In this document: positions 31,197-64,000 of the stretch, piece by piece
Position numbering within the stretch: position 1 is the first letter of the stretch
Layout of the letters: each line of letters begins with the position of its first letter
DNA from: Clostridia bacterium
GTDB taxonomy: Bacteria; Bacillota; Clostridia; Monoglobales; Monoglobaceae
Assembly: GCA_045579055.1 (NCBI GenBank)
Contig: JAZNLK010000136.1
Location: 10,732-74,731, forward strand
Length of the DNA: 64,000 bases
Reading direction: 5' to 3'
The notes under the pieces: generated by a model
Databases searched by the model: none
What the model saw: the letters and a program-made list of their open reading frames with translations, nothing else
Told to the model about the DNA's origin: nothing
Made by a program: the position numbers and the translations under genes

Positions 31197-32810
31197 TTAT
31201 TTGCCTTTGGTAATTTCATCAACAGTTTTCTGATAAACATCATATGTTCTCTGGTTAATTTCCTGCAACTCATCTGCACCAAGATCGTTCAGCTTTTTGA
31301 TGTAACCGTCCCAATCCTTTTCAACATCCGATCTGCCCATAATCCAGTTTGCCTTGTTTCTTTCAACATAGTTGAAAATATCTGTTTGAAGGACAGACAA
31401 TCTGCTGGAATCCTCCGGATCGTAATAGGGTCTGGGCCATGTTTCCTTGTCAATGAACGGTTCATAGAGTGCCCAGAGTTCATCATAAGTACGGAATGCA
31501 TCGCAGTCCTCAATAACCGTGCCACGATCATCTTCCAGACTCAAATAGCCTATCATATGAGGACCGTGTGGTGAATTGTTGTAGTACATTTCGCTGATTG
31601 ATTCATAGCCCTGTTCAGTGGGGTCATTCCACATAAACATATCGCCTTCTTTGTGGAATGTCTCTTTAATCTTTCCGTCTGTGTCAACTTCGCCGTACCA
31701 GTTAGTGATGGTTGCTTCTTTTGAATAGAAGGTATCAAGCCATGCCATTGCAGCCTTGGGGTCATCACAAGCAGATGTGACGTGAGCCATATTTCTTGTG
31801 CCGATTGAACCCGGGTGGATATGCACAATAGGTTTAATCTGACCATCTGCACTTATGGGAGCAATAACTTCATACTGGTCAGCATTAATGCTAAAGGGAT
31901 TTTCCTTGGCAAATGTAACACCAACAACCGGAACTTCTGATGAAAGTCTTGAGTTAAATGTGTTTGACTCAAATGTAAAGCATTCTATATCAAGAAGTCC
32001 TTCTTTGTAAATATCCGCATAGAACTTAATCATTTCTTTCCATTCATCCATCATGGGAGTGAAGTTGACTTTTCCGTTCTGAACATTCAGGTATGAATCA
32101 TACATACCGAATTTTGTTGAAACACCCCAGCATGAAAGAAGTGTTTCGGGATAGTTATATGCACCTTCGTTATAGAAGGTCATAGGGATTTCATCAGCTT
32201 TGCCGTTGCCGTTGGGGTCGCCTGTTTTGAAGGCTTTGAGAACTTCCTTAAGTTCAGGAAGAGTTGTGGGAGCATCAAGCCCAAGCTTGTCAAGCCATGC
32301 TCTGTTTATCCACCAGAAGGTTTCAATAGCTGCCCCCCGTCCGCCGCTATATGAGGGAAGAGCATAAATATGTCCGTCAGGTGATGTTGCAATAGCCTTT
32401 GTTGTGGGTCTTTCCTGGAACATTCTCCAGATATTGGGAGTGTTTTCTTCTGTGATGTAATCTTCCAGAGGAATGAGAACTTCCTGTGCCGCATACTTTG
32501 CAACATCCACATTCTGGAACTGATTTTTTGCGATAATATCGGGATAATCGCCTGATGCCATAATCATCTGAATATCGCCGCCAATCCACTCGATTTCGTA
32601 TTCAGTGTTTGCATCCCATTTGTTCTGATAAAACTCAAAAACATCTTTTGCCTCCGGCTTAGAAGAATAATCGTATCCATAAACCGTAAACTTCTTTACA
32701 CCGCCGTTTGTATTGTTAGATGCGGTTTTCTCTTCGCCGCATCCGCCGAACATAACAGCGATACCTGCTAGCATTGCAACTGCCAGAATTAATGAGATAA
32801 TTCTTTTCAT
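31197..32810 (-). CDS. Extracellular solute-binding lipoprotein (ABC family-1, LplA-like, about 537 aa)
   Basis: Lipobox MFGGC follows the signal peptide MKRIISLILAVAMLAGIAV. The size and pattern match large sugar-binding lipoproteins. An alternative start lies at 32822. Confidence 0.8.
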   Translation of the reverse strand: MKRIISLILAVAMLAGIAVMFGGCGEEKTASNNTNGGVKKFTVYGYDYSSKPEAKDVFEFYQNKWDANTEYEIEWIGGDIQMIMASGDYPDIIAKNQFQNVDVAKYAAQEVLIPLEDYITEENTPNIWRMFQERPTTKAIATSPDGHIYALPSYSGGRGAAIETFWWINRAWLDKLGLDAPTTLPELKEVLKAFKTGDPNGNGKADEIPMTFYNEGAYNYPETLLSCWGVSTKFGMYDSYLNVQNGKVNFTPMMDEWKEMIKFYADIYKEGLLDIECFTFESNTFNSRLSSEVPVVGVTFAKENPFSINADQYEVIAPISADGQIKPIVHIHPGSIGTRNMAHVTSACDDPKAAMAWLDTFYSKEATITNWYGEVDTDGKIKETFHKEGDMFMWNDPTEQGYESISEMYYNNSPHGPHMIGYLSLEDDRGTVIEDCDAFRTYDELWALYEPFIDKETWPRPYYDPEDSSRLSVLQTDIFNYVERNKANWIMGRSDVEKDWDGYIKKLNDLGADELQEINQRTYDVYQKTVDEITKGK

Positions 32811-32841
32811 AACCGTTACCATCCTTTTTTATTTCATATTT

Positions 32842-35800
32842 TTAATTATTTATTTCATTCATATAAACATCTGCTAAAGGAGCATTGTACCAAACAATAT
32901 AGCTGTTCTCCGTTTCGGAAAATTCCTTGCCAAAAGCTTCTGCACAGGCCTTGATGTTGAAATATCCGTTCTTCAGGCAAGCTTCGTCAAAGGTTTTTGT
33001 CTCACCGTTCACGGTGTAACTTGCCGAACCCTCGGTGAACGTCACAACAGCATTACCCATCTTGAAGGTTCCGTTGCCTGCAAATTCTGCTCCGAATACC
33101 TTTGCGATTGTCTCTGCATCATATCCGTCCTGAACGTCAACCGCAGTATTCACGCCGTAAATCACAGCAGTTCCCGATGTTTTGGGCAGAACGCAGCTTG
33201 TTGCCATATGGCTACCTGAGCTTATGCCCCAATTGTATCTGGGATGAATTTCCTCAAAACGTTTCTGGCTTCTTACCTTGTTCTTGTCAATTGCGTAGGT
33301 GATTGAACGTCTTGGTGTGTGCAGGTTGTTCCACTGGATGTAAACCGTATCGCCAAAAACTCTAAGAACGTGGTTACAAGCATCGTAGCTGGGACATTCT
33401 GTTGTTTCATTGAGAGTTGCAACATATTCCCAGGACTGCATTCCGTCATAGCTGACAACAAGAGCAAAACGGTTACGGGGTCTGTGGATATAACGATAGT
33501 CATAAGTTACAGCATCATTCTGCATAATTGCCCAGTAGGTGTTGGGGTCTTCGTTATCACGTTCCACTGCATAAGTACAAAGAGGAGCAATGAGCTGTGA
33601 AGGTCTCCATTCACCAAAGGTCACGCCGTTATCCTTCGAATCAGCATACATAACAAAACCATCGCCCGAACGTGCATACCAACGGATTGTTCCGTCAGGA
33701 AGCTCCACGTGTGAGCTTTCCTGGAAGTTCTGTTCTGTTATCTTTGCATCATTTACCGTTTCGGTAAGATACCAATCCTTGAGGTTGTCTGAATACCATG
33801 TTGTTATCATACCATTGGTTCCGTATTCCGAAATTCCGTAGTCAATACCCAGGAAGACTCTGCCGTTCTTTGCCTGAGTCATACTACCTGTCAACAGAAC
33901 ACGACGACGCCCGTCATCTGCTGATGTATAGCCCATAAACTGCCAGTTTTCGCCGTCATCCTCTGAAACCCAGGCTTCCTGAGGCTTTGACAAATCTCCC
34001 ACACGGATTTCAAGGAGTCTGCCGTCATAGAGACGAAGTCTGTTTTCCGCATATGGTTTTCTTTCTGCCACAAATTCTGACCATGTTTCACCGTTATCTG
34101 TGGTCTTTCTGTAGCCTGTATTTGACTGCCATACGTAAACCGAACCGTCAGCCCTATCACTGATTTCACAAATACCAACCTGGTCAGAAATCACAGCACT
34201 CTTAACTGCTCCGGTCACAGCACAGCGTCCTGTGTATTCAACATTGTCAATAATGGCACTTCCCTCAACGAGACCAATGCCTGTGTAACCATTGAAGGGG
34301 AATACAACATTTTCCTTCTTCACAACGGTTTCGCCATCGCACTTAAGTTCAAAATAGCCTTCCTTTGTCACGAGCTCAAAGTCGTGCCATTCGTCCGGGC
34401 TCAGTGCCTTTCCTTCATAATCAGTACGCGTATTCTGGGGGTAGAAGCCGTATGCGCTCCATTCCTTCAGATACCACTTGCCCTTTACGAAGTCATAGCC
34501 TGCTTTCATATTATACCAGTTCTTGAAGAGGCGTGTTGTCACATAAAAATCCTTGGTGTCGCTTACCTTTGCCTGCCACTTCATAACAACATCGTTGCTC
34601 TGACCGTTCAGCAAATATGTACCGGTTCCCGACAATTCCATTGCACCGCTCTTAATCTTTGCATCAATGCCGCTTTCTTCATCAGGAAGCCAGAAGTCAA
34701 GAGCATCAAGTTCGGTTGTTCCTTCAAAATTCTCGTTATGAGTGAATTTGTCGTTTGTGTTCTTGATTGCAATAAGTGTGGATGCCGAAGGATTGGACAT
34801 TTCTCTTATAAGCCTTGCAGGAGTTGCACTTGTGGGTGCCGCAAAGGAATCCACATACACATTATCGCACCAAACCTGAACAAGACCCTTTGCAACTGTT
34901 ATTCTCCAGTAGCCCGGCTTCACCTCACCGTTGAGTGTGAATTCAGGCTTACCTTTTGCCAACAAAGTCTGAGTGTTGGTCGTGATTTTTCCGTCCTTCA
35001 TAACCAGTTCCACTTTGTAGAAGCCGTCATAGAAGGTGATTGTCTCATCCGATGCGTCAAGCTTGTCGAATTCAATTGAATAGTTGTGCGTAAGATTTGC
35101 AACTGTTCTGCTGTATGCAGGTATCTTTGCCCATCTTTCAGCCATAACTGTTGTCTTCACACCTGTTCCGCCAAGAGCGAAGTTCTGAACTCCGTCGTAT
35201 TTAATCAGGTTTGCAACCTCTGTTTTGGGGAGAAGTGCCGTGAATGCAAGGTGTCCGTTGTAATAAACAATGGCATATCCCGATGTCACATCAACCTTGT
35301 AGTTACCTTTTCCGAGAGCAAATTCTTCTGTGCCATCTTTTGTTACAACAGTAGTTTTGCCGCCGGAATGGTTCAATTTCAGACCAAAGTATCCGTCAGC
35401 AATCTCAACATTGGCATTTTCCGCTGTCACATCATATCCAATGCTGTATTCACGGTCGAATACCGCATTTTGATTGCCGTCGGTCTTTACATTTATGTAT
35501 ACACTGTCGGCTTTGAACTGAGCACCGTTGTTGTTCTTTATAATTGCATAAACCTCAGCAGTTCCTGCCTTAAGAAGCGGGGTGCTGAACACAAAGGGAG
35601 CAACGCTTGCTTCACCGATTTTTTGACCGTCTGTATAATATTCGACAGAAGTCGGCATAACTCCTTCATTTAAAATATCAGTTTCTATACTGAAATTTAC
35701 ATTTTCGCCATAAGTTACCTGGGTTTTGTCTGCTTGTACTTTTGCTTCAAAGCCCTTTACCACGTTTATAATATGTTCAACAGACTTTTTGTCGCCTATA

Positions 35801-37110
35801 CCTGCAGAAACACGGTATGTGCCCATCTTGGCATTTTCAAGAACGTATTCATAACCGGGTGCATAACCTCTGCCAACATTCAGACCGTTCACGAAGTAGT
35901 CAACATATTCAACATCTTCCGCTACTTCTGCCTTGAAAGTGATGTTTGAGCTTTCAGCATATTCCGAGCCGTTGGGAGGTGTTGTGAGGTTAACCTCAGG
36001 GAAATATGGCTTATAGTGTATATTTCCCAACTCAACGTGGTAGTGGTCAAGCTGGTTTGCCTGAATCAAAAAGCGAAGAAGGGGCGTCTGTGCCGGATTC
36101 TTCATCATTTTATAACGGGCAATCTCGCCACCATCCATATAAAGCGTCATATATTCTCCGCGAACCTCTATTTTCCAATTGTGCCATTCATGACCGATGT
36201 CCACCTGAATTCCCATACCGCCAATGGGGTTTGAGTCAGCACAAGCGGTACGGATACGATCAGGGCTGATATACTGATAGTTGTTGTATCCTGTTGTTGC
36301 AGCCTTGAACTGCATTTCCTCGGAGCTGTAGTCATGAACCTGAAGTCCGAATTCCATATCATAGTTTTCGGTGGTTTTCGGAGCACGTTCAACCTGATAG
36401 TTTCCTGCCCTGCCTGTTGTATTGATTTCAATATTTCCTTTTTCGTTTACAAAAAGGTTGTCGCAGTCGGTTATCGTCCAGCCATCAAAGGATTCCGCCC
36501 AGTTGGTTGTAAATTCGGGTGTGTATTCAGTTTCCAAAGGTGCAACCAGAAACGGAGGTGCAAAATCCTTGCCGTCCACAGTTGTCAGGGAGAAGTTTTC
36601 AATCAGAACATTACCCGAAGCAGAAGATGCAAAGAAAAGAGCCCTTGGATTCCAGTTATTCTCCTGGGTGGTTCCGGTGTGCACCAGATTATTATCTATA
36701 AAAATACGCAATACATCTCCCGAAGCCTCAAGACGATAGTCATGCCAGGAGGTGTTGGTTGTGTATCTTGTGCTGCCGCCGTTGTAATCGTTTATGTAGT
36801 TCTGATATACATAAATGCCCGCTCTGCGGCTTCCGTTACAGAGATAAAAGCCCTGATAGGAGTTGCTTCCCCAACTTTCAATCTTCATTGAAAACTTAAT
36901 AATATATTCAGAGGGAACAGAAGGTGTCATATCCGCACCTCCGCCGCTCCCTGCGGGTATTATAAGCAAGTCGCCGTCTATTTTTGAAGTTATAAGATTC
37001 CATGTACTCCAAGGAGAGGCTTCTGCCGCTGAAACCTTCAAGGATGTGAAGATTGGCAGAATGCAGCTTGCCAGCATAATTATTGAACAAATTAAAGCTA
37101 ACTTTTTCAT
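32842..37110 (-). CDS. Giant secreted protein A5 (1422 aa): several concanavalin/LamG-like jelly rolls, Ig-like domains, a BNR/Asp-box propeller and a C-terminal stalk-like domain; no recognisable anchor
   Basis: Signal peptide MKKLALICSIIMLASCILPIFTSLKVSAA. Asp-boxes TTDNGETW, SEDDGENW, SKDNGVTF and SYDGMQSW. It is a paralog of 47186-52777. RBS GGGAGG. Confidence 0.8.
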   Translation of the reverse strand: MKKLALICSIIMLASCILPIFTSLKVSAAEASPWSTWNLITSKIDGDLLIIPAGSGGGADMTPSVPSEYIIKFSMKIESWGSNSYQGFYLCNGSRRAGIYVYQNYINDYNGGSTRYTTNTSWHDYRLEASGDVLRIFIDNNLVHTGTTQENNWNPRALFFASSASGNVLIENFSLTTVDGKDFAPPFLVAPLETEYTPEFTTNWAESFDGWTITDCDNLFVNEKGNIEINTTGRAGNYQVERAPKTTENYDMEFGLQVHDYSSEEMQFKAATTGYNNYQYISPDRIRTACADSNPIGGMGIQVDIGHEWHNWKIEVRGEYMTLYMDGGEIARYKMMKNPAQTPLLRFLIQANQLDHYHVELGNIHYKPYFPEVNLTTPPNGSEYAESSNITFKAEVAEDVEYVDYFVNGLNVGRGYAPGYEYVLENAKMGTYRVSAGIGDKKSVEHIINVVKGFEAKVQADKTQVTYGENVNFSIETDILNEGVMPTSVEYYTDGQKIGEASVAPFVFSTPLLKAGTAEVYAIIKNNNGAQFKADSVYINVKTDGNQNAVFDREYSIGYDVTAENANVEIADGYFGLKLNHSGGKTTVVTKDGTEEFALGKGNYKVDVTSGYAIVYYNGHLAFTALLPKTEVANLIKYDGVQNFALGGTGVKTTVMAERWAKIPAYSRTVANLTHNYSIEFDKLDASDETITFYDGFYKVELVMKDGKITTNTQTLLAKGKPEFTLNGEVKPGYWRITVAKGLVQVWCDNVYVDSFAAPTSATPARLIREMSNPSASTLIAIKNTNDKFTHNENFEGTTELDALDFWLPDEESGIDAKIKSGAMELSGTGTYLLNGQSNDVVMKWQAKVSDTKDFYVTTRLFKNWYNMKAGYDFVKGKWYLKEWSAYGFYPQNTRTDYEGKALSPDEWHDFELVTKEGYFELKCDGETVVKKENVVFPFNGYTGIGLVEGSAIIDNVEYTGRCAVTGAVKSAVISDQVGICEISDRADGSVYVWQSNTGYRKTTDNGETWSEFVAERKPYAENRLRLYDGRLLEIRVGDLSKPQEAWVSEDDGENWQFMGYTSADDGRRRVLLTGSMTQAKNGRVFLGIDYGISEYGTNGMITTWYSDNLKDWYLTETVNDAKITEQNFQESSHVELPDGTIRWYARSGDGFVMYADSKDNGVTFGEWRPSQLIAPLCTYAVERDNEDPNTYWAIMQNDAVTYDYRYIHRPRNRFALVVSYDGMQSWEYVATLNETTECPSYDACNHVLRVFGDTVYIQWNNLHTPRRSITYAIDKNKVRSQKRFEEIHPRYNWGISSGSHMATSCVLPKTSGTAVIYGVNTAVDVQDGYDAETIAKVFGAEFAGNGTFKMGNAVVTFTEGSASYTVNGETKTFDEACLKNGYFNIKACAEAFGKEFSETENSYIVWYNAPLADVYMNEINN

Positions 37111-37124
37111 ATCATCAAACCTCC

Positions 37125-39785
37125 CTATTTCTCTTCAAGAACAAATACTGTTCTCACCGTGCTGCCCGAAATATAAACCACTACCACAGAGGCATTTTCG
37201 GGGTCATCAGCATACGTTTTAAGATCCTCAACGCTTCCTTCCGTAAAGCTTATATTGCCTCTCAGGTCTTCCATAATCATCACCTTTGCCGAAGAAAGGG
37301 GCAAAGAATCTCGTCCAACAGTTTCATCAAACTCACCGGGATCGCTTTCCAGACAGGTTGTCAGCAATAACTTACCCGATGATGCATCGAGTACTGTTCC
37401 CACAACCATACATTCGCCGTCGGCATACGGAGGATTTGTTGTACCGTGATTTCCGCCTCCAAGCTTGAAAACACGTTTTGCAGATGGATTTACAAGGCTT
37501 GGCATTGCATCGGTGGATGGGTCTGAAATTCCGATTACTTCACTCTTGATATTTGTTGTTATTCTGATGAAGTCACCGGGATTCAGCTTTTCATAAGCCG
37601 CATAGGCAGCCTCATTTATCACTTGTGTCTTGAGATTGCCGTTTCCTGCATCAATAACCTCAAGTGTCTTTACCACATCTCCGTCATCATTGAGAGCCTG
37701 CGTTTTGTCCTGAACAATAAACGACCCCCAGGTTCCGTGATTAAATACCAATCTGTATACATACGCAAAATCCGCCACACGGCTGTCAGGGTCTACGTTA
37801 CATACGTCAATGTAGTCATAATCCCATGTGTTCAGACTCATACCTTCAGCAAGATTGTAGTATTCATAATCAAGCTCCGAATATACATCCTTGAAGGGAA
37901 CACGGTATGCCCTGTTGTCCTTTGTTGCAGCAACAAACGCACCTGTGTCTCTGTTATAAAAGCTGCTGCTTGTTCTTGAATATTTATAGGATTCGGTTTC
38001 CAGGCGTCTGAGACTTGTTTCCGCATCCTCGTGGTCTGCATCGAAATAGAGTGTATCAAGTGCAATAAGCTTGCCTTCACTGTTAAGTGTATATTTAACA
38101 GGCTGTGCAACCTCACCTTCGTCATAAGGCTTTACCGAAAGCTTTGCAGATTCCAGAAGACGAGCTTTGATGTCAGCAGCCTTGCAGGCAACACCGTCAA
38201 TCTTCACATTCTTGTTCATATCAAAAGTTGCCGCCTTCAGGTCTGTCTGCATCAGACGGAACTGAATTGTGTCGCCGAAAATTTCAGGCTCACTTACGCT
38301 CACAAGGTAGCCGTAGCTGTTCATTGAACCTGCAACTTCCACAATGACAATCATATCCTCGTATGTATAGAGTGTTACTGTTGCACCTGCTTTGATTTCC
38401 GACCTGGAGTCTTCGTCCATGCCGTCCCAGAGCTTGTAGGTAACCTCACCCACCGTCACTCTTTCATCAGTCACACTGCCAAGACGTGAATTTGCTTTTG
38501 CATCCTTGAGAACCTCAATCACAACCTTGTCGTAGCCCGAATCCACTTTGGTGCGGCGTACTGCAAGAAGATCACGGTTGATTATTCTGTCGAAGTCATA
38601 TGCCTTGCCGTCCTTTGTGACACTAACCTCATCTGAATTTTCAAGCTCAAGGTCTTTTCCGTCCTGAACCGCAAAAATCGTCATTTTGCTTGGATTCGTT
38701 GACTCTGCAAGAATAAATTCCACACTATCAATCAAAACAACATCAAAAGTTTTGTCGTTGTTGTTATCAACAAGCGTAACCTTGCCGTACGCAGGCACCA
38801 TCTCTTCCGGGTCAAGTGCCGGATATGCTCCACCGTTGAAAATAATTGAAGCAGATTTGGAAATCTTGACCTCTTTGTCCTTGTTGTTCTGTTCATAAGT
38901 ATAAGTAAAATCAGAATAGCTGATAATTTCATCATAGTTCAAAATAAGCTCATTGTTTTTCTCGTCCTTAGTCATAAAAACAACATCTTTGCCATCTGCG
39001 TCTGCTTTATAATAATACTTAACCCTGTAACCAAGGAAAGCCGATGCGTCGCCGTCATAGTTATGAACTGTGCCACCGATTGAAACTGTATTGTCGTTTA
39101 TTGTATCCAGAATTTCATCAAGTCCCGTATCGGAGGTTGCATCAAGAACCGCACGGTCTGAAACCACACCGCGGAGATGCTCCGCACCCAGATAATCCTG
39201 ACTGATTTCATAGCTTATTCCGTCACCGAAGCCCACAATTTTGCAGGCAGGAGCATGAAGTGCATTGTAAATCATCTTCAGAAACTCACCGCAAGTCACT
39301 GCATCACGGATTTTAACTCCGTCCATAATTCCTGTTTTGAGCATTACGGCATCAAAGCTTGTCACCGCAATATAGTCCTTGAAACCGAGAATATTCGCAA
39401 GAACTCTTGCGGCTTCTTTGGTTGAAATGTTCTGAACAGGACGAAAACGACCGTCAGGATATCCAATCATATAACCCATATCAGAAACCGCCTTGATATA
39501 ACCAAAGTACGGAGTTTCGGTTGTTACATCGTAATAAACGCTGTCATATCCAGAAGCCGTTGCCGCCGAGATGTCCGTCAGCTTGCAGAAATACTCCGCT
39601 GCCTGAGCTCTTGTGAGACTCTTTTCAAGGTCAACCGAGTCCGCATCTTCAATAATATCGAATGCTGCAAGAAGTGCCAGTTGCTTGGCTGTCACAGCTT
39701 CAGATTCCGCCTCAGAAAAGGCAGGAATATAAAGAGCTGATACAACCAGAACCAATGACAAAATAAGTGCTGATATTTTTTTCAT
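37125..39785 (-). CDS. SLH-domain surface protein A4 (886 aa; N-terminal SLH repeats plus a long beta-rich region)
   Basis: The ATG at 39785 (MKKISALILSLVLVVSALYIPAFS) has RBS GGAAGGAA. SLH-like repeats are present (TRAQAAEYFCKL; FGYIKAVSDMGYMIGYPDGRFRPVQNISTKEAARVLANIL). It is a paralog of 56978-60250. Confidence 0.8.
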   Translation of the reverse strand: MKKISALILSLVLVVSALYIPAFSEAESEAVTAKQLALLAAFDIIEDADSVDLEKSLTRAQAAEYFCKLTDISAATASGYDSVYYDVTTETPYFGYIKAVSDMGYMIGYPDGRFRPVQNISTKEAARVLANILGFKDYIAVTSFDAVMLKTGIMDGVKIRDAVTCGEFLKMIYNALHAPACKIVGFGDGISYEISQDYLGAEHLRGVVSDRAVLDATSDTGLDEILDTINDNTVSIGGTVHNYDGDASAFLGYRVKYYYKADADGKDVVFMTKDEKNNELILNYDEIISYSDFTYTYEQNNKDKEVKISKSASIIFNGGAYPALDPEEMVPAYGKVTLVDNNNDKTFDVVLIDSVEFILAESTNPSKMTIFAVQDGKDLELENSDEVSVTKDGKAYDFDRIINRDLLAVRRTKVDSGYDKVVIEVLKDAKANSRLGSVTDERVTVGEVTYKLWDGMDEDSRSEIKAGATVTLYTYEDMIVIVEVAGSMNSYGYLVSVSEPEIFGDTIQFRLMQTDLKAATFDMNKNVKIDGVACKAADIKARLLESAKLSVKPYDEGEVAQPVKYTLNSEGKLIALDTLYFDADHEDAETSLRRLETESYKYSRTSSSFYNRDTGAFVAATKDNRAYRVPFKDVYSELDYEYYNLAEGMSLNTWDYDYIDVCNVDPDSRVADFAYVYRLVFNHGTWGSFIVQDKTQALNDDGDVVKTLEVIDAGNGNLKTQVINEAAYAAYEKLNPGDFIRITTNIKSEVIGISDPSTDAMPSLVNPSAKRVFKLGGGNHGTTNPPYADGECMVVGTVLDASSGKLLLTTCLESDPGEFDETVGRDSLPLSSAKVMIMEDLRGNISFTEGSVEDLKTYADDPENASVVVVYISGSTVRTVFVLEEK

Positions 39786-39804
39786 AATATTTCCTTCCTT
39801 TCTG

Positions 39805-42168: not shown

Positions 42169-42181
42169 ATTTTTGCCCTCC

Positions 42182-44213: not shown

Positions 44214-44259
44214 TTCCTTTCCTCCTTGGATAAATTGAAATTTATACCTTTATGATAAA

Positions 44260-44288
44260 ATTATATATATAATACAGTCAAAAGTAAA
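44260..44288 (-). promoter_or_regulatory. Putative promoter of the locus A operon
   Basis: On the minus strand, TTTACT (44288-44283), a 17-nt spacer, then TATAAT (44265-44260). It lies 7 nt downstream of motif copy (b). Confidence 0.5.
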
Positions 44289-52975: not shown

Positions 52976-52991
52976 AAGATCCAACATTTAC

Positions 52992-54753: not shown

Positions 54754-54759
54754 TGTTTT

Positions 54760-54788: not shown

Positions 54789-54815
54789 GACCCAAAATTT
54801 CCCTACCCATAAAAT

Positions 54816-54868: not shown

Positions 54869-54895
54869 TTTCATTTTTCAAGAAATCATCAATAA

Positions 54896-56152: not shown

Positions 56153-56166
56153 AATGTCATATCTCC

Positions 56167-56952
56167 CTATATTTCAAAAGTTGCCAAAAGCGGACAATGA
56201 TCCGATGAATCCAAAGCCTTTTGAGTTGTAAGAATTTCAAACTTCTTCGCCTTTATTTCTGAATCACCATATGTAAAAATGTAATCAAGATTGCGTTCAG
56301 GCATTGCACCGTCAACATAAATTCCTTCATCATTCAGAATGGGATATTCATGATGTGTGAAGGAGTCGGTTGTTTCCTCGGCTGTATGTCTTACGTCACA
56401 AAAACCTTCCTGAATCATCTTGTTGTACGGTTCTTCGCCCTGTTCGGAATTTATTCCGTTGTTGAAGTCGCCTCCGATTATTGCAGGGACATTATATTCT
56501 TTGGTCATTTTCTCACAGAAAGCCTTGAGCTCTGCTACATTCTGAAGCCTTTGAAGGTTATCCTCCTCACCCCTGAACATCCACCAGAAATGAGTGGAAC
56601 CGACCAACACTCTTTTTTGTGTGGTTTTATCCTCAATAACAGCCCATGCCACAGATTTTGAATTTGCGTCGTTCAATCCCGTGTAAAGAAAATATCCGCT
56701 GTCAATGAGATTATATTTTTCAGTCTTATAAAAAAGACCGGTATAATTTCTGTCAGCAAACTCCGGACAAACCTCCGAATAGGTTGCCTCAATCAGCTTG
56801 GGAAGGGGTGCAGCCCCGGCACGATTGGTGCCGGGCCCACATTCCTGAAAACAGCAAACATCTGCATCAAAATCACTGATTAGAGACGCAATCAAGGTGT
56901 TTCGATATTCACTTGGATTGAAATTCCATACATTTTGACAATATACTTTCAT
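56167..56952 (-). CDS. Endonuclease/exonuclease/phosphatase (EEP) family protein, cytoplasmic
   Basis: The pattern is typical of EEP proteins (VYCQNVWNF...CFQE...GSTHFWW...GGDFN...SDHCPL). The ATG at 56952 has RBS AAGGAG. The longer start at 56970 has no RBS. Confidence 0.75.
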   Translation of the reverse strand: MKVYCQNVWNFNPSEYRNTLIASLISDFDADVCCFQECGPGTNRAGAAPLPKLIEATYSEVCPEFADRNYTGLFYKTEKYNLIDSGYFLYTGLNDANSKSVAWAVIEDKTTQKRVLVGSTHFWWMFRGEEDNLQRLQNVAELKAFCEKMTKEYNVPAIIGGDFNNGINSEQGEEPYNKMIQEGFCDVRHTAEETTDSFTHHEYPILNDEGIYVDGAMPERNLDYIFTYGDSEIKAKKFEILTTQKALDSSDHCPLLATFEI

Positions 56953-56977
56953 ATGTCTGTCTCCTTTCAAATGTCAA

Positions 56978-59900
56978 TTATTCATATGCATAAACCAATA
57001 TCACCTGAGGATTACCGGTGTTTGAATACACCATAGCTTTATAGCGGTCAATTCCTGCAAACTGATGGGCATCAGCAACCGCCGTGATTGATGTTCCTCT
57101 GTTGGTTTCCTCAACAAGGAAAATCTTTTCAAAGGCTTCCTTTAGATAGGTTTCACCATTTCCTGCAATTGTAGTAACAGTCAGGGTGTTTTTGGTTGCT
57201 GAGCTTATGCTGCCAAACTGATATCTGTAATAGCCGTTATAATAGTCAGGATAATTTCCGCCCACAGTATACCATGTGTCGCCCATTGGTGCATCGCCGC
57301 CCACAGGTTCAACAGCCGGGTCAAAGTCAAAGATACGTTCTGCGGCTCTGACCGTGGTTCCCTGAGTCTGATAACGGATAATATCGCCAAAGCCGATGTC
57401 TGTAACAGGTTTTGCATATTTAATCTTTTCCGCATCCGACAATGCAATGAAAGCACTCATATCAACCCAGTTTTTGCTTGAAGAATTAGTGCTGAGACAT
57501 TCGGGTTTTTCCTGATACAAAAGTCCTGTTTCAATTATGCTAAGGTCTTCCTTCGCCATAAATGATGCTTCCTTCTGTGTTTCAATGTTCAAGCCCTTGA
57601 CCTGAATCACAATATCGCCGTCAGCAGACATTGTCTTTGTAACCTCCTGCACAACCAGCTGAGGTGCTGACGTGTTTGTTACGGTTGTTAGCATACCGCC
57701 TGTTGGTGCCATGGCAGAAGCACTGTATGAATTTGTTGTCACAAAAACCGTGGGATAGCCTTCCTCGTCGGGCATATATCCCTGAAGATTCTGAGTTTTG
57801 TTGGAACGATTTCCGGCAATATTCAGAACCGTTGACACGCTGTACAGCTCGTCAAAATCAGGGTCGGTGGTGAATGAACCTGCAACAACAGGCAACACAA
57901 AGGTTGCTGTGTCAGCCTTCGCCTGACCAATCATCAGGTGCTTGCTCCAGAAAGCTGACGAATCTTTTGTAAACATACCTTCTGTGATTTTCGTATCCAT
58001 TTTGCTGAATGTAATGCCATCATCCGCTTCAGCATCGCTTTGAACAATTGTGTCAATTGCTCTCAGCTCTCCATTGCCGTTGAGCTTGAATCTGATAAGC
58101 TCCTTGTCATAAATATTCTGACCTGCCGCTCTTGTCAAAGCAGAGGCAAATTCAGCTTTTTTCATGGTTACGCCGTCAACGGTAATTTTGTCTGCAACGG
58201 AATATACCTCCCATTTTTCGTCCTGAGTGAACATCTTGAATCTGATGTCGGTTGAAATAAGCTGTTCTATTCCGTATGTCTGAGAAAATGCAAACTTCCA
58301 GTCGCTCATTGCCGCCTCTTCATCTCTCTGAATCCAGAGGATTTCACCGGCTTCGTCAATATAAGCTGTAACCGCATCACCGCTCTTCACGCCTGAGCTG
58401 TCAAAATTGCTGCCGAATGCAATGGAATATTTCACGTTGTCAATCACTGCCGTTTCATCCGACAAAGCCGACAGCTTGCCGGAAATCGGCTCATTGTAAA
58501 GAATCATCCTGCAATTCTTGCCGTCAGGTGTGGAATAGAGCTTAACAACACTATCTTTTGCAACCTTGCGCATAGCCTGATTCTTGCCATATCCGTCGGT
58601 TACCGAAAGATTTTCAAGTTTCATTGTCTTGCGAACACCTTCTGTGTCAACAATTGTCATTTCTTCCTCGTCAGAAAAGGCACTTGCCAGATAATGAAGG
58701 GTATATTCTTCGATGAAAACAACGTCATATCCGCTTTTGCCGTCGTTGTTGACCAATCGAAGCTGACCGTTTTTGATGAGTAAATCGGATTTTTGGTAAA
58801 AGGGGTCAGCAACTCCGTTTTTAACAACATAGAAATTATCCGAAAGCCCGTATTTTTTCTCTTTACCTTCAGCATTTTCGGCAATTATCACGCCTGATGA
58901 AATATCCGATTCCGAAGACATAAGATATGCCGCAGGCAGAACTGCTTCAACATTATCCTCTGTCTGCCAAGCATAGAACAGTTCTCCGCTGTCAATATAA
59001 GATGCCGCAATAACCGACTTTCCCAGATATGCATCAAGAACACCTTTTGAGTCCGTAAACTCTCTGCCGCCGATTACAGCATTTCTTTCATCCCTCTTTT
59101 CGTTTCCGTCAAGGGTACTGATTCGGTTTTCCTCAACGATGCCTTCGGTGAGAACAACATTATAACGGCTTCTGAGCAAATCCTCGCCCTTCTCGTAACG
59201 CACCGACTCCGGCTCAATTGCCGCTATTCTGTATTCCGGTGCAAGAAGTGCGTTATAAAACACCGTTGCAATGTCGCCACGGCTTATGGGCTCATCATAG
59301 GATTCCATGGGAACATCCTTGAATAAGTCCATATCCTCAACAAGCTTCAAAAGCCTTGCGGTCATATTCATTTGAGAGAATACGTTTATAACATCGCTGT
59401 AGCCTATTGCACGAAGGGTCATATACATAATTTCACGCTTTGTCACATAGTCATTGGGGCGGAAATAAGCTGTTCCGTCACCTGTGATGTACCCTGAATT
59501 GTATGCTCCACATACAGCATCATAATTCTTGTGGCTTTGGGGAACATCCGCAAATGGCATTTCACCGCCTGTTGCACCGCCGAATGCATCAACAACCGCC
59601 TGTGCGGCTTCGGCGCGGGTCATAAGATGGTCAACACCATAAATATTTTCGTTAATAGGCTGTGTGAGACCCAAGTAAGACAAAAGTGTAATTACGTTCT
59701 CCTGTCTTGAGCCTGCAACGTCATCGCCAAGCACGATGGCATTGGGGTCAACAAGCTCACCGTAGATTTCCATTTCCGCCAACACGAAGATAAAAAGGTC
59801 AGTCTTTACGGCACGAACATATCGGTAAGGTGTTTTGAGTGTAATGGGAATCTCAACAGGCTCCTTGAAAGGTGCCGGAATTTCACCAAGTGCCATTACA

Positions 59901-60250
59901 CGTTCTTTTTGCGAAAAATCCGGTGTGTTTGAAAACTCAAGTGCAACTCTCATTCTGTATTCGTTCTGGTCAATATCAGGACGGGTATGAAGAATAACCG
60001 AGTTGATTCTGTAAGCCTCTCCCAAATCTATCATTATATTTTCTGCAGCTCTCAATTCTCCACGCACCCAAAGTGTTCCGGGATTTCCGTCATTGATATG
60101 CTCCACTTTGTAAGCTGTATGGGTTGAGCTTGCCACAGCAGGCTTGCCGAGAGCAAGGTTATCACCGCTTGCCGAAACAGAAACGGGTTGAAAAAATAAT
60201 GTACTTACAACAAGAGTAAGACTTAATAATAATGTAACTATTCTTTTCAA
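56978..60250 (-). CDS. Surface protein B1 (1090 aa): F5/8 type C (discoidin/CBM32-like) domain, SLH repeats and a long beta-rich region; paralog of A4
   Basis: It uses a TTG start at 60250 with RBS GAGGAGGA 6 nt upstream. Signal peptide (M)KRIVTLLLSLTLVVSTLFF. Discoidin motif NLALGKPAVASS..INDGNPGTLW. SLH repeats (MTRAEAAQAVVDAF; FADVPQSHKNYDAV..). Confidence 0.8.
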   Translation of the reverse strand: MKRIVTLLLSLTLVVSTLFFQPVSVSASGDNLALGKPAVASSTHTAYKVEHINDGNPGTLWVRGELRAAENIMIDLGEAYRINSVILHTRPDIDQNEYRMRVALEFSNTPDFSQKERVMALGEIPAPFKEPVEIPITLKTPYRYVRAVKTDLFIFVLAEMEIYGELVDPNAIVLGDDVAGSRQENVITLLSYLGLTQPINENIYGVDHLMTRAEAAQAVVDAFGGATGGEMPFADVPQSHKNYDAVCGAYNSGYITGDGTAYFRPNDYVTKREIMYMTLRAIGYSDVINVFSQMNMTARLLKLVEDMDLFKDVPMESYDEPISRGDIATVFYNALLAPEYRIAAIEPESVRYEKGEDLLRSRYNVVLTEGIVEENRISTLDGNEKRDERNAVIGGREFTDSKGVLDAYLGKSVIAASYIDSGELFYAWQTEDNVEAVLPAAYLMSSESDISSGVIIAENAEGKEKKYGLSDNFYVVKNGVADPFYQKSDLLIKNGQLRLVNNDGKSGYDVVFIEEYTLHYLASAFSDEEEMTIVDTEGVRKTMKLENLSVTDGYGKNQAMRKVAKDSVVKLYSTPDGKNCRMILYNEPISGKLSALSDETAVIDNVKYSIAFGSNFDSSGVKSGDAVTAYIDEAGEILWIQRDEEAAMSDWKFAFSQTYGIEQLISTDIRFKMFTQDEKWEVYSVADKITVDGVTMKKAEFASALTRAAGQNIYDKELIRFKLNGNGELRAIDTIVQSDAEADDGITFSKMDTKITEGMFTKDSSAFWSKHLMIGQAKADTATFVLPVVAGSFTTDPDFDELYSVSTVLNIAGNRSNKTQNLQGYMPDEEGYPTVFVTTNSYSASAMAPTGGMLTTVTNTSAPQLVVQEVTKTMSADGDIVIQVKGLNIETQKEASFMAKEDLSIIETGLLYQEKPECLSTNSSSKNWVDMSAFIALSDAEKIKYAKPVTDIGFGDIIRYQTQGTTVRAAERIFDFDPAVEPVGGDAPMGDTWYTVGGNYPDYYNGYYRYQFGSISSATKNTLTVTTIAGNGETYLKEAFEKIFLVEETNRGTSITAVADAHQFAGIDRYKAMVYSNTGNPQVILVYAYE

Positions 60251-60265
60251 ATTTCGTCCTCCTCT

Positions 60266-63200
60266 CTACTTTTCGATTATATTTAAAAATCTGTGGAATA
60301 TAACTGCCGCCTCGGCACGGGTTGCGTTGCCCATTGGCTTGAAGCTTCCGTCTGTGTAGCCGTTGATGATTCCAAGTCCGTTCAGTGTGTTCACCGCATC
60401 CTTTGCATAATCCGAAATATTTGCCGAATCCGCAAATTCTGATGTTTCACCGTCATATTCTATTCCCATCTTCGCAATGGCACGGTTGAGCATAACAGCA
60501 AGATCCTGTCTGGTCACCTTCATACCAACACCAAAATCCTGTTTTGAAACGCCGTAAACAAGCTCATTGACCTTTGCCGCCGTAACAAAGGGATAATACC
60601 ATTCGCCAACCTTGCAGTCGGAATAGTTGTTTTCGCCAAGCCCGTCGGTGGTAAGCTCCATTGCAAGGATAAGCAACTTCACCGTTTCTTCACGGGTCAG
60701 AGTTCCTGAGGGGTCAAACAATCCGTTGCCCTTTCCGGCAATGATTCCTCTTTGACTAAGTTCTGTGATGGCAGCTTCTGCCCAGCTATATGCACCGATG
60801 TCAGAAAATCCCGACTGTGGCTTTTGGGTAACCGCATCAACATTTACCTGCGGAATAACAACAGGAGAAACTCCACCGAGGTTCATTCCGCCACCACCGC
60901 CGCCACCGGAAGAGGAATGTCCTTTTTCCGTTGCTGTGACCTTGTCTTTGCTTTTCAGTTCATCCAGAATGTCAGAAACTTCCTTATCCATTCCGTCAGC
61001 ATAATCAGCCTTCACAATTGACATATTCTTTGAAAGCTTCTTTGCAATGTCAAGCATTGAATATTTTGTTTCAAGTGTGCTTTCTTCAATGCCCAGCTGC
61101 TCACTGTAATTCTCCAGTGCATACACAATGTCTTCCTGGCTTCCGTTTGCAACAAGGCAAAGTGCCGAAGCACGTCCAATTGCCTTTGCCGCAGCTTTTG
61201 CCGTTGTGGGAGCCGACTTCTGAACAGCCCCAAGGATTTCCATAAACTCTTCCTCGTCATAGCTATCAGTGAACACATCGGGCATTGAGCCGATATAAGG
61301 TGTTATGTCAGCATCACTATCAAAAAATGCACCGTCAATCACGATTGCAGCCTTTGCCGCCGCTGTAATGGCTTCAACGCTGTTCCAGTTTTCGATATTT
61401 TCATCAAACAAGCCTTTTTCAATGCCGTCTTTTGCCAGCATAAAGCTCTTTGCCATGGTTTCGGAAGCAAGAAGCTCATCCGAAACAGTTCCGAAGAATC
61501 CGCTGTTTTCCCGAACCAGTTCAGCAAAGTTTTCTTCCGTAACATTTTCAAAGTCACTAACAACAGCAGATGTATCGGTATTTGCAAACACATAACTGCT
61601 TTCCGAAAGAACCGAGTCCGGGTTATCAGTCGCAAAAACAACGCCATATTCACCCTCTGCCGCATCTGATGGCATGGTATAGTCGAATGTATACTTCCAC
61701 TCTGAATTGTCGTTTTTGGGCGACTTTGCAATAATATGTGCAAAAATGTCATCAGCACCAAAGCTTTCCGCATCTGCACCGGGCTTCAGAATAACCATTG
61801 CCATAACCGAACAATCGGCGCTGATGCTGGCACTGATGCTTGTTCCAATCTGATTATATTCAATGGCGCCTTCGTTATCGCCCTCGTATGCCGGACGTTC
61901 TGTTTGTCTGCGAAGATTTTCATAATATTTTATGATTTCTCTGCCCTTGATGAGAGCCGCTTCCCATGTGCCGCTTGTTCCGTTTTCAACTTCTGCCGTT
62001 ATTTCAAGGCTGTTGGGAGCACCAGCATGAGCCACGGTACTCTCGGCATAAAGAGTTTCCGCTCCGTCAGCTGTGTTGCGAACAAAGATACCAATGAGCT
62101 TGTGAGCATCTTCGCCGTTTAATAATTGGGTTTTGATCCGGAGTTCAGTATCACTTACCGATGCATTAATGTCGGATATTATGTAACTGTCGCCTGTTTC
62201 CGCAACCAAATCACAGATATCCGAGCTGTTGGCATACGCCTGCAAGGTGCTTATTTCAAGGCGGTTAAAGTTGTTTGCCGCTCCTGTCAGATTTGTTGCG
62301 TGGGGCTTGATTACGCCCACATAGCGATATTTGTTATCCTTTAATGCATCAGGAACTTCAACAACCACAAGTCCGCTGTCCTTCGCCGAATCACGGTTGA
62401 GGGTGTCAACCACGGCAATAACGTCATAATGACCTTCATTGAAGTTATCCTTTGCACTTGAATAGCTGTCGGTTGCAACAATTTTGAATGCATTGCCGTA
62501 GTCAGCACTGCTGTTCTTCACCTGAACCGCAACATGACTGAGCTTCACATCCATTCCCATATCCGTAATTATACGCATAGGTGCTGTTTCAGATGTTGCA
62601 TCACCTGCAGAGGTTGTTGGGTTATCGTCATTGAAGCCCGCCTTTTTGGACTCATTATACTTACTTGTATTATCATGTGAATTTGCAAGGTTTGACATAA
62701 AAATAGGCTTGTTCAAGGTCATAAGGGACACAGAGCCCGATGTCGCATCATTTTCCGCTTCAGCATTGGGAACATATACCGCAACCTCTGCAATTGCAAA
62801 GTCTGTGTCCTCAGCCGCCGCTGAACGTTCAAAAATAATGTATCTGAACTCACCTGATGTTGCTTCTTCAACGTACAGTTCTTCGCTGTCAATTGTTCCA
62901 ACATTCAATATTGCGGTTTTGTCCTTGAAAAGAAGGTCAGATACGCCATACACCGTCATATTATCGGCAGAACCCGAAAATGCAGGCAAAATGCCGATTC
63001 CTTTTACCGTATATGTATCACCCAAATCAACAATCAACTGTTCCGAATTGGATTCAAAGTTCTTTGCCTTCCAGTAGGTTTCGGCATTGCCGTCGAGGGC
63101 TTGTCTCGGAGCTGTTCCTTCATCGGAGCTCAATGCAAAAGAAGGCTTGCCTGCCGCAACATCCGAATACTGGCTCAAATCAAAGCCATCATCGGGAATG

Positions 63201-64000
63201 ATCTCGCCACCGCCTTCACCTTCGCCGCCTTCGCCGCCTTCACCGCCTTCGTCAGCAGCTTTTGGAGCATACGCCTGGAATGTGCTGACAGACAGACGAG
63301 TGTACTTCTGTTCGGGGGATGCACAAGGCTTAATAATGCCAACCCATGAATACAAATTATCCTTAAATTCATCGGGAACATCAAAAACAATCAAGCCTGA
63401 ATTACTCTGACCGTCCAAAGGAGTTACCGTCACTTCGGCAAGAACATCATAATCCGCTTCCGAATAGATGTTTTTTGCTGAGGTATAGCTATCAGTTGCA
63501 ACAATTTTGAAATAGTTAATATAGTCCTGAGAAGGAGGTGCACTCTGATACGCCACATGACTGAGCTTTGTGGGGGTGCCAAGGTTCACCATCATTCTGA
63601 TTGGAGACTCCTTTGCGGCAGTGGTTCCCGTAGATGTACTCTTGTCTCCATCAAGGAGATTTGCTCCAATTACGCCTCTGCTTTCAAGATATCTCGTATA
63701 ATCCATACTATCCGCAAGACTGCTGATGAGTATGCTCTTGTCGGAAGTTGTAGCAAGTGCCACATTTTGTGCATCTGTATAAGCTTCGTCTGATGAATAT
63801 ACTTCAATCTCCGCAAACCCGAAGGCTGTTTCGGTTTCCTCTGCCGCACGTTCAAAAACAAGATAGCGGTATGCTGTTTCAGAATCCTCAACCGTCACAT
63901 TGCCGTCACCAATTGTCTCAACAGCCGCAATCTGACTTTTGCCTTTATACACGTTGACTTCTGCACCGTAAATTGTAATATTATCCGCAGAACCGTCCTC
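60266..64000 (-). CDS. Surface protein B0 (more than 1244 aa, 5' end outside the window): repeated discoidin-like modules, Ig-like/helical region, poly-Gly linker and a C-terminal SLH triplet
   Basis: The reading frame stays open from 63952 to the window end (..EDGSADNITIYGAEVNVYKGK..), so the GTG at 63952 is internal. It contains (EGG)n and G7 linkers. SLH repeats are present (FSDIGAYSWAEAAI.., YSDCKVGEWYYPFV.., FADSANISDYAKDAV..). Confidence 0.8.
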   Translation of the reverse strand, partial: EDGSADNITIYGAEVNVYKGKSQIAAVETIGDGNVTVEDSETAYRYLVFERAAEETETAFGFAEIEVYSSDEAYTDAQNVALATTSDKSILISSLADSMDYTRYLESRGVIGANLLDGDKSTSTGTTAAKESPIRMMVNLGTPTKLSHVAYQSAPPSQDYINYFKIVATDSYTSAKNIYSEADYDVLAEVTVTPLDGQSNSGLIVFDVPDEFKDNLYSWVGIIKPCASPEQKYTRLSVSTFQAYAPKAADEGGEGGEGGEGEGGGEIIPDDGFDLSQYSDVAAGKPSFALSSDEGTAPRQALDGNAETYWKAKNFESNSEQLIVDLGDTYTVKGIGILPAFSGSADNMTVYGVSDLLFKDKTAILNVGTIDSEELYVEEATSGEFRYIIFERSAAAEDTDFAIAEVAVYVPNAEAENDATSGSVSLMTLNKPIFMSNLANSHDNTSKYNESKKAGFNDDNPTTSAGDATSETAPMRIITDMGMDVKLSHVAVQVKNSSADYGNAFKIVATDSYSSAKDNFNEGHYDVIAVVDTLNRDSAKDSGLVVVEVPDALKDNKYRYVGVIKPHATNLTGAANNFNRLEISTLQAYANSSDICDLVAETGDSYIISDINASVSDTELRIKTQLLNGEDAHKLIGIFVRNTADGAETLYAESTVAHAGAPNSLEITAEVENGTSGTWEAALIKGREIIKYYENLRRQTERPAYEGDNEGAIEYNQIGTSISASISADCSVMAMVILKPGADAESFGADDIFAHIIAKSPKNDNSEWKYTFDYTMPSDAAEGEYGVVFATDNPDSVLSESSYVFANTDTSAVVSDFENVTEENFAELVRENSGFFGTVSDELLASETMAKSFMLAKDGIEKGLFDENIENWNSVEAITAAAKAAIVIDGAFFDSDADITPYIGSMPDVFTDSYDEEEFMEILGAVQKSAPTTAKAAAKAIGRASALCLVANGSQEDIVYALENYSEQLGIEESTLETKYSMLDIAKKLSKNMSIVKADYADGMDKEVSDILDELKSKDKVTATEKGHSSSGGGGGGGMNLGGVSPVVIPQVNVDAVTQKPQSGFSDIGAYSWAEAAITELSQRGIIAGKGNGLFDPSGTLTREETVKLLILAMELTTDGLGENNYSDCKVGEWYYPFVTAAKVNELVYGVSKQDFGVGMKVTRQDLAVMLNRAIAKMGIEYDGETSEFADSANISDYAKDAVNTLNGLGIINGYTDGSFKPMGNATRAEAAVIFHRFLNIIEK

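Follow-up and report, generated by a model that had tools for sequence, protein, structure and literature searches.

Organization of the two loci

A stretch of 64,000 nt from contig JAZNLK010000136.1 of a Clostridia bacterium (assembly GCA_045579055.1), here called the window, was investigated for two groups of genes that encode very large secreted proteins ('giants'), proteins with S-layer homology (SLH) domains and small secreted proteins. The groups were designated locus A (A1–A6) and locus B (B0–B5); coordinates are positions in the window and all of these genes lie on the minus strand (Table 1). The ORFs listed in a preliminary description of this DNA were all found where it had placed them. 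Database proteins 100 % identical to A1, A3, A4 and B5 were also found, those for A1, A3 and B5 lying on an NCBI contig of 85,121 bp.

From A1 to A6 the genes of locus A are separated by 13, 13, 19, 14 and 19 nt, in agreement with the compact six-gene arrangement (13–19 nt spacing) described earlier. One promoter and one terminator had been proposed for these six genes, and matching sites were present at both ends of the locus, as consensus matches only. A1–A5 form a conserved operon for secreted proteins and are the core of the region. Signal-peptide-like N-termini were found in all nine proteins that start inside the window (A1–A6, B1, B4 and B5), but not in B2 or B3, so that a signal peptide on every protein, as first described, was borne out for these nine.

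Table 1. Positions of genes, domains and other features in the window
Feature	Position (nt)	Strand	Description
Hexuronate-catabolism genes	20–8226		See text
AraC/cupin regulator	8183–9184		
SLH-bearing giant	9444–16688	-	2,414 aa; see text
Non-carbohydrate genes	17063–22822	-	See text
FG-GAP/GH130 block	23099–28877	+	FG-GAP (936 aa), GH130, HAD and SIS genes
Terminator-like hairpin, 3' of A6	31067–31099	-	15-bp stem, then T-run; consensus match only
A6	31197–32822	-	541 aa
A5	32842–37110	-	1,422 aa
A5 C-terminal domain	32845–33180	-	Cu_amine_oxidN1-like; sub-threshold Pfam match
A5 propeller	33181–34248	-	GH33-like; Pfam BNR_2
A5, block identical to B5	33295–33405	-	Residues 1240–1276
A4	37125–39785	-	886 aa
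A4 body	37134–39215	-	About 700 aa, small β-barrels
A4 SLH triplet	39222–39695	-	N-terminal
A3	39805–42168	-	787 aa
A3 SLH triplet	39823–40380	-	C-terminal
A2	42182–43147	-	321 aa
A1	43161–44213	-	350 aa
Promoter-like sites, 5' of A1	44252–44288	-	Two overlapping sigma-70-type consensus matches, 10/12 each; consensus match only
GH2 enzyme	44407–46161	-	Between loci A and B; Pfam GH2 N, middle and TIM-barrel domains; no signal peptide
AraC-family regulator	46294–47070	+	Divergent from GH2 gene; Pfam HTH_AraC, HTH_18
B5	47186–52777	-	1,863 aa; A5 paralogue
B5 C-terminal extension	47189–48790	-	534 aa
B5, block identical to A5	49241–49351	-	Residues 1143–1179
B4	53105–54622	-	505 aa; secreted
B3	54896–56152	-	GH109-like NAD-dependent enzyme; Pfam Glyco_hydro_109_C (E 7e-49), GFO_IDH_MocA; no signal peptide
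B2	56167–56952	-	Endonuclease/exonuclease/phosphatase (EEP) family; Pfam Exo_endo_phos (E 1.6e-8); no signal peptide
B1	56978–60250	-	1,090 aa
B0	60266–64000	-	Frame open at window edge, 5' end outside; ORF with Pfam F5_F8_type_C and SLH

The giant proteins A5 and B5

The two giants have the same domain order: a signal peptide, two DUF1080/ConA-like domains, Big_7 Ig modules (two in A5, one fewer in B5), further ConA-like/DUF1080 domains, a BNR_2 propeller and a 112-aa C-terminal domain. B5 carries in addition a C-terminal extension of ConA-like modules. By blastp they were 52 % identical over residues 1–450 and 57 % identical over residues 489–1422 of A5 and 403–1329 of B5, and are clear paralogues along their shared length, as had been proposed. 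Pfam matches in A5 were to Big_7, BNR_2 and 3keto-disac_hyd; the BNR_2 score was 35.8 bits for A5 against a cut-off of 31.4, with B5 borderline at 31.3. A profile of 15 members of the giant family matched the GH33 sialidase NanI of Clostridium perfringens (2bf6/2vk5) with an E value of 2e-17, and five Asp-box-like motifs were visible in the sequence. The A5/B5 propeller thus shows the general features of GH33, namely a six-bladed propeller with Asp-boxes and a match to the BNR_2 or sialidase profile.

Within the propeller, 55 of 356 columns were invariant. Residues E1131 and R1147 of A5, invariant in 15 homologues, align with E297 and R313 of the 2vk5 chain; we take these to be E539 and R555 of NanI, through a construct offset of +242, and presumably the catalytic Glu that pairs with the nucleophile and Arg 2 of the arginine triad. 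The invariant PRNR (1211–1214) and Y1257 of A5 are mere candidates for other catalytic residues. Both peptides that the preliminary description had quoted as shared by A5 and B5 were present, the identical block being 37 rather than 35 aa long. Nowhere is the protein more highly conserved than in this block, which lies in the last propeller blade and holds invariant N-H, Y and N residues; GH33 enzymes carry their Tyr nucleophile in the last blade. At the DNA level only 91 of 105 compared positions of the block were identical (14 differed), so that purifying selection is likely, and not recent gene conversion. Close relatives of A5 numbered 17 among 5.8 billion proteins, in a search whose sensitivity is limited by its word prefilter. 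The giants would be a very divergent new branch of sialidase-like enzymes.

No SLH domain, cohesin, dockerin or transmembrane segment was detected in the giants or the small proteins (Pfam, E ≤ 0.01; hydropathy); their peak hydropathy (KD19) was at most 1.22, with no hydrophobic stretch past the signal peptides. Sortase anchoring of the giants was considered and rejected, as the lone LPXTG-like string (LPKTS, A5 position 1308), although conserved, precedes a folded domain of about 110 aa and has no sorting tail. With respect to known anchors, as judged by Pfam, hydropathy and motif checks, the giants and small proteins therefore lack SLH, LPXTG, dockerin and transmembrane anchoring, as had been stated.

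The SLH proteins and their pairing

Pfam placed SLH domains in A3, A4, B0 and B1 alone, which is the distribution first described, and an SLH3 hidden Markov model (HMM) matched all four. Each of these proteins has three tandem SLH motifs that form one domain, with visible TRAE/TRxE-like motifs such as those of A3 (VTRAEAAVF) and B0 (ATRAEAAVI). No csaB gene was found within the window.

A3 consists of a signal peptide, two modules that are each Ig-like plus helical, a poly-Gly linker and a C-terminal SLH triplet (Pfam SLH ×3, E 9e-33). It is internally duplicated (23 % identity over 211 aa, E 4e-14), and its N-terminal part had only eight close homologues, all from this cassette type. B0 has a duplicated module containing F5/8 type C (F5/8C) domains (43 % identity over 251 aa, the copies being separated by an acidic Gly/Glu-rich linker), followed by an Ig-like and helical region, a poly-Gly linker and a C-terminal SLH triplet. 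The suggestion that A3 and B0 share all of these modules stood for the poly-Gly linker and the SLH triplet, but not for the Ig-like/helical part; homology outside the linker and SLH domain was rejected, blastp being negative and hhalign of an A3-family profile against the Ig/helical region of B0 giving a probability of 0.2 %.

In A4 a signal peptide is followed by the N-terminal SLH triplet and a body of small β-barrels. An AlphaFold2 (AF2) model of A4 (pLDDT 87.6) matched SpaA-SLH at residues ~30–190 in Foldseek (TMt 0.65–0.74). The body was modelled as a chain of small OB/SH3-like barrels with only partial Foldseek matches to OB/CSD/HIN-like barrels; it had no global match in the PDB by Foldseek or by sequence profile. 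B1 has a signal peptide, an F5/8C domain, an SLH triplet and an A4-family body (Pfam), an architecture that recurs in the proteins P0101 and P0172. A4 and B1 were 23 % identical over about 600 aa by blastp (E 1e-21), and an HMM of the A4 body built without B1 matched B1 residues 358–1029 with an E value of 3e-58, with the SLH3 HMM covering residues 184–342. The SLH repeats and the β-rich region of about 700 aa that had been reported as common to A4 and B1 were thus confirmed as those of distant homologues.

An N-terminal SLH triplet followed by a β-rich body of about 700 aa resembles the layout of Sap, EA1 and SbsB, and A3/A4 and B0/B1 might accordingly be structural S-layer or envelope lattice or pore proteins with no functional tie to the neighbouring enzymes. 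The A4-family profile does match SbsB, Sap and SpaA, but in their SLH parts only (E 1e-17; residues 5–165 of SpaA-SLH); assignment of the A4 body to an S-layer lattice protein or a known fold was rejected, as no sequence or Foldseek match extended beyond the SLH domain. Several such pairs also occur per genome, each in a different carbohydrate-active enzyme (CAZyme) operon (two in the window and two cassettes in GCA_054282905.1), and the cassette-specific N-terminal part of A3 is a poor fit to a housekeeping lattice. We regard a purely structural role as very improbable.

When the A4 body was used as the query of an exhaustive HMMER search, 1,997 representatives (clusters at 50 % identity) were returned at E ≤ 1e-3, of which 765 had E ≤ 1e-10. 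Of the 150 members listed, nearly all were 850–930 aa long, with the body starting near residue 190–220. The nine members that were scanned contained SLH domains only, some with F5/8C or weak DUF5666 matches in addition, and a body without a Pfam model. No description of the A4 family, or of this gene set, was found in the searched literature, the coverage of which was incomplete.

A gene for a C-terminal-SLH protein followed by one for an A4-family protein was found in both loci of the window (A3–A4 and B0–B1). Among 12 assessable loci, including eight from other genomes and metagenomes with an upstream neighbour of this kind (L001, L003, L004, L005, L006, L008, L013 and L014), the C-terminal-SLH gene lay directly upstream of the A4-family gene in 10, downstream in L009 and fused to it in L010. 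Such a neighbour was found for only one of 19 other N-terminal-SLH proteins (Fisher P = 1.5e-5), the control set being metagenome loci without a true A4 body. The A4-family neighbourhoods included two from a genome scan with narrow patterns and three with a true A4 body from a metagenome scan dominated by SLH motifs. The fusion is a 1,427-aa protein of L010/L011, in which a part resembling A3 (helical region and SLH) and one resembling A4 (SLH and body) are united. These sequence data establish the A3-type and A4-type SLH proteins as an evolutionarily coupled pair, and the strict C-SLH/N-SLH pairing together with the A3–A4 fusion suggests that at least this pair works as a unit.

CAZymes without SLH domains also occurred near A4-family pairs outside the present cassette type. 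GH141-like and β-helix proteins were found in L009, and RGI-lyase-like fn3/Big_5 proteins, with an ABC importer alongside, in L014. In L013 (7405–10929) a rhamnogalacturonase-like β-helix enzyme is encoded two genes downstream of the SLH pair; this enzyme has a Cu_amine_oxidN1 domain with a strong match (E 7e-22) as well as an F5/8C domain, in parallel with the weak match at the end of A5 and B5.

The small secreted proteins A1, A2 and B4

A1 and A2 are paralogues (31 % identity by blastp, E 2e-42) and A2 matched the HMMs of both A1/A2 domains. A1 had no Pfam or NCBIfam match; 15 homologues of its family were found. In the AF2 model of A1 (pLDDT 83, pTM 0.78) an N-terminal ConA-like jelly roll is followed by a C-terminal β-sandwich. 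The best Foldseek matches were legume lectins and GH131 (probability 1.0, TMt ~0.45), and the top 50 were mostly legume lectins, with GH131/GH2 accessory domains among them (TM 0.3–0.48). With TM scores this low only the fold class can be stated, and A1 and A2 are accordingly predicted to have a ConA-like jelly-roll fold.

B4 had been grouped with A1 and A2 in one family of small jelly-roll proteins. Its membership did not stand at the sequence level: the hhalign probability of 94 % spanned the signal peptide, and with HMMs lacking the signal peptide the E values were 0.36 (N domain) and 0.31 (C domain). B4 was 33 % identical to a free 491-aa protein of L006 (E 3e-66) and 32 % identical to residues 1–480 of the 1,766-aa second giant of the same locus (E 7e-43), and is the free-standing counterpart of the N-terminal extension of second giants (L006, L004). 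The A1/A2 N-domain likewise occurs within larger proteins, its HMM matching B5 at residues 1353–1477 and 1658–1698 (E 1.5e-5 in a 46-sequence database) and being found also in the N-terminal regions of P0014 and P0016. The C-terminal extension of B5 is homologous to modules of L004 and L005 proteins. Since the A1/A2 and B4 modules form part of giants in some of the other genomes, A1, A2 and B4 are read as probable accessory partners of the giants.

Conservation of the cassette in other genomes

An arrangement of two small-protein genes followed by C-SLH, N-SLH and giant genes, in some cases with a further giant, was found in five other loci at 32–85 % identity: L003 and L005, which are two cassette copies in one genome (GCA_054282905.1), L004 (GCA_052834725.1), L006 (GCA_054288445.1) and L001 (32 % identity), the last from a metagenome-assembled genome (MAG) of the Monoglobaceae. 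A looser version of the A1–A5 order occurred in L008. Homologues of the giants are therefore syntenic with the small and SLH genes, which was the check proposed at the outset. The A5-type giant is immediately followed by a second giant of B5 type in L004, L006, L001 and L007; the GH2–AraC gene pair separates the two types in the window and in L003.

Besides the A3–A4 fusion, the L010 locus encodes two ABC permeases, a protein resembling A2, a giant that is A5-like over its full length (25 % identity) and an A6-like solute-binding protein (SBP; 47 % identity). Beside this cassette are genes for an N-acetylneuraminate lyase (3391–4269; NCBIfam 344.7 bits against a cut-off of 281) and a 332-aa BNR_3/BNR_2 neuraminidase-like protein (8994–9992). 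By homology these two neighbours are the best hint at the handling of a sialic-acid-type sugar. Taken as a whole, the comparative sequence data support a probable functionally linked, surface-located glycan apparatus.

In locus B the genes B0–B1–B2–B3 are packed with gaps of 14–25 nt, followed by 273 nt before B4 and 327 nt before B5. A B4-like/B5-like pair was present in L012 (GCA_964410155.1) and B0–B3 were absent, which indicates that B4–B5 goes with cassette A and that B0–B3 is a separate unit. The L012 pair directly abuts an FG-GAP/GH130 block (FG-GAP, GH130, HAD and SIS genes; L012 34–5030) corresponding to that of the window, so that the related genomes differ by insertion or deletion of B0–B3. 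The picture of two paralogous cassettes with the same protein set thus applies to A5/B5, which are clear paralogues, and distantly to A4/B1, but not to A3/B0 or B4, and locus B is not one tight cassette.

Uptake and metabolic surroundings

A6 is not a surface lectin. It has a lipobox-like FGGC motif and, with no Pfam or NCBIfam match at E 0.01, matched PDB entry 5g5y with an E value of 1e-54; AlgQ1/2 and Smon0123-type SBPs were among its other matches (E values from 1e-54 to 1e-30 overall). We take 5g5y to be the fructo-oligosaccharide SBP FusA, and AlgQ1/2 to be alginate SBPs. A6 is thus, by homology, a predicted oligosaccharide-binding lipoprotein of an ABC transporter. Its orthologues adjoin ABC permease (BPD_transp_1) genes in L010 and, in L001, two permease-sized ORFs assigned by size only.

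The GH2 enzyme between the loci is β-glucuronidase/β-galactosidase-like; its best NCBIfam match, to β-glucuronidase, was under the cut-off. The position of its gene is kept in L003 and L012, as is the AraC regulator; in L004, L005 and L010 this regulator precedes the cassette. The first genes of the window encode a GH38 α-mannosidase, UxaC, a second GH2 enzyme, an altronate dehydratase and an oxidoreductase of the mannitol dehydrogenase family (hexuronate catabolism), and are followed by an AraC/cupin regulator. The combination of GH2, GH109-like, GH38 and GH130 enzymes with uronate catabolism is compatible with host N-/O-glycans and with complex plant pectins alike.

Two further groups of genes were observed in the window. 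The 2,414-aa giant has a VWA domain, about nine Listeria–Bacteroides repeats and a C-terminal SLH domain and is unrelated to the cassette. The adjacent genes have no link to carbohydrates; they encode a double-HTH protein, DUF4432, SPFH/Band 7, a metallo-β-lactamase-fold protein and DUF4145, and may form a small accessory or defence islet.

A possible surface glycan-processing system

The reading that we favour as a whole, and to which we would give about an even chance, is that the region specifies a system for glycan processing at the surface of a Clostridia bacterium with SLH proteins, with the A1–A5 operon as its core, in which the SLH pair tethers giants and small proteins that have no SLH domain of their own. 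A3, through its C-terminal SLH domain, and A4, through its N-terminal SLH domain and with its rod of small β-barrels, would pair up on the cell wall, where, from what is known of SLH domains, they would bind a pyruvylated wall polymer. This pair would hold the anchor-less giants and small proteins at the surface non-covalently, the contact possibly being made by the Cu_amine_oxidN1-like domain of the giants or by the ConA-like proteins. The A5/B5 propeller would cleave an acidic ulosonic sugar, of the sialic-acid type or another, off a complex glycan, with A1, A2 and the B4 module acting alongside the giants as accessory binding subunits. The oligosaccharides thus freed would be imported by an ABC transporter that has A6 as its binding protein, and processed in the cytoplasm by the GH2, GH109-like and other enzymes under AraC-type control. 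B0–B1 would be another SLH pair, built in the same way and equipped with discoidin lectin domains. What the analysis shows is the gene content, the domains and folds, the conserved gene order, the fusions and the pair rule; docking and complex formation, substrate and catalysis are inferred. An SLH scaffold for the unanchored lectin and propeller proteins was already proposed in the preliminary description; it is plausible and has gained ground through synteny, the fusions and the pair rule, but is still a proposal.

A number of observations weigh against this reading, some concerning catalysis and others docking. The alignment of the giant propeller to GH33 enzymes is confined to blades 3–4. 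The first Arg with its RIP motif, the third Arg, the Asp that serves as acid/base and the nucleophilic Tyr were not located in the A5/B5 propeller by HMMER alignments to PDB sialidases, which cover blades 3–4 only, and no RIP motif was found in propeller blade 1. The giants are for these reasons kept as GH33-like rather than assigned to GH33, and the propeller may be an active exo-glycosidase on a sialic-acid-type or other ulosonic acid. No nanA gene was found in the window. The giants could instead be non-catalytic adhesins or lectins, with a propeller that has lost its sialidase chemistry, serving attachment to host or plant glycans without degradation. The failure to align the RIP Arg and the Tyr nucleophile would be expected of such proteins, as would the many lectin-like ConA/DUF1080 modules of the giants and the lectin-like fold of A1. 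However, the Glu and Arg aligned with catalytic residues of NanI are invariant, and the most conserved stretch of the giants, the identical 37-aa block, sits in the propeller. Moreover, an oligosaccharide SBP accompanies the operon, as does a sialate lyase in L010, which implies product release and uptake. An adhesin role without catalysis is therefore judged improbable.

With regard to docking, Pfam (E ≤ 0.01) detected neither cohesins nor dockerins, nor the domains of another known docking pair, in any of the proteins. Binding between any two of them is a prediction, and the loci on which the pair rule is based are not phylogenetically independent. The C-terminal domain of A5 matched Cu_amine_oxidN1 (PF07833) with 20.2 bits against a gathering cut-off of 24.2 (E 6e-4, profile positions 23–102 of 108); only four of 10 members of the giant family matched this profile (best E 1.6e-5). 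In hhalign the A5-type domain matched the bona fide Cu_amine_oxidN1 domain of L013 with an E value of 0.0024 and a probability of 12 %, and the L014 enzymes had no Cu_amine_oxidN1 domain. A domain of this family is the homodimerization module of a secreted Paenibacillus superoxide dismutase, the one characterized bacterial example found (PMC10432803). By analogy, the C-terminal domain of the giants is a possible candidate for a docking or dimerization module. No ABC permease genes were found near A6 in the window.

The region might, on the other hand, be an ordinary Gram-positive polysaccharide-utilization operon in which no complex is formed. The SLH proteins would then be independent glycan-binding or envelope proteins of the wall, the giants and small proteins would be released into the medium to act freely, and their co-location would reflect co-regulation on one substrate. 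An AraC regulator, an ABC SBP and cytoplasmic glycoside hydrolases (GHs) are typical of such loci; B0 and B1 have discoidin lectin domains of their own, and Pfam detected no known docking module. This does not readily account for the strict C-SLH/N-SLH pairing and the A3–A4 fusion, for giants that never have an SLH domain yet always lie beside the pair, at identities down to 25 %, or for small modules that alternate between free and fused forms. We consider independent action possible, if somewhat unlikely.

Comparison with known systems

The nearest system in working principle is the anchoring of cellulosomes by SLH scaffoldins. In Clostridium thermocellum the SLH scaffoldins SdbA, OlpB and Orf2p hold enzymes through cohesin–dockerin pairs. 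SLH-anchored non-catalytic proteins are in both cases encoded with large secreted CAZymes that lack a wall anchor. The present locus differs in the constant pairing of two SLH proteins and in its enzymes, which are multi-lectin giants of a GH33-like kind, and the absence of a detectable cohesin–dockerin pair means that it is not a member of the cellulosome type.

The giants resemble GH33 sialidases such as C. perfringens NanI and the Ruminococcus gnavus IT-sialidase (4x47) in their BNR_2 propeller, Asp-box-like motifs and lectin-like accessory domains. They differ in the partial alignment described above, in being three to four times larger and in having their own ConA-like array and a Cu_amine_oxidN1-like end. 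Surface CAZymes of Monoglobus pectinilyticus and Caldicellulosiruptor reportedly bear SLH domains themselves. These too would be cases of Clostridia placing glycan-degrading machinery on the wall by means of SLH domains, and the related L001 comes from a Monoglobaceae MAG, but the anchor is there said to be on the enzyme, whereas here anchor and enzyme are separate polypeptides. A4 shares an N-terminal SLH triplet with the S-layer proteins Sap and EA1 of Bacillus anthracis, SbsB of Geobacillus stearothermophilus and SpaA of Paenibacillus alvei, but its barrel-chain body matches none of their Ig-like crystallization domains in sequence or fold. Gram-positive polysaccharide-utilization loci with ABC importers have in common with the region an SBP for large oligosaccharides, to which A6 is homologous, with an AraC regulator and cytoplasmic GHs adjacent; in the window, unlike in those loci, no permease genes lie beside this SBP and the extracellular part is far more elaborate.

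A wider and more doubtful proposal is that the C-SLH adaptor and the A4-family protein form a widespread, so far unrecognized wall platform of the Clostridia that holds large SLH-less CAZymes without cohesin–dockerin pairs. The variable N-terminal part of A3 would give specificity and Cu_amine_oxidN1-like or ConA-like pieces would make the connection, amounting to a second answer, reached independently, to the task that cellulosomes fulfil.

Clostridia of the gut and rumen are major degraders of complex glycans, and the retention of very large enzymes at their surface without cellulosomes is poorly understood. The module of two SLH proteins, which is co-encoded with SLH-less enzymes and represented in thousands of protein clusters, is a testable candidate for this function. 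If the proteins act independently, the region would be an elaborate but ordinary glycan-utilization region. If the pair docks enzymes, it would represent a new architecture for the display of surface enzymes, would give a function to a large unannotated protein family and would provide a first role for many of the Cu_amine_oxidN1-like and ConA-like modules in the secretomes of Firmicutes.

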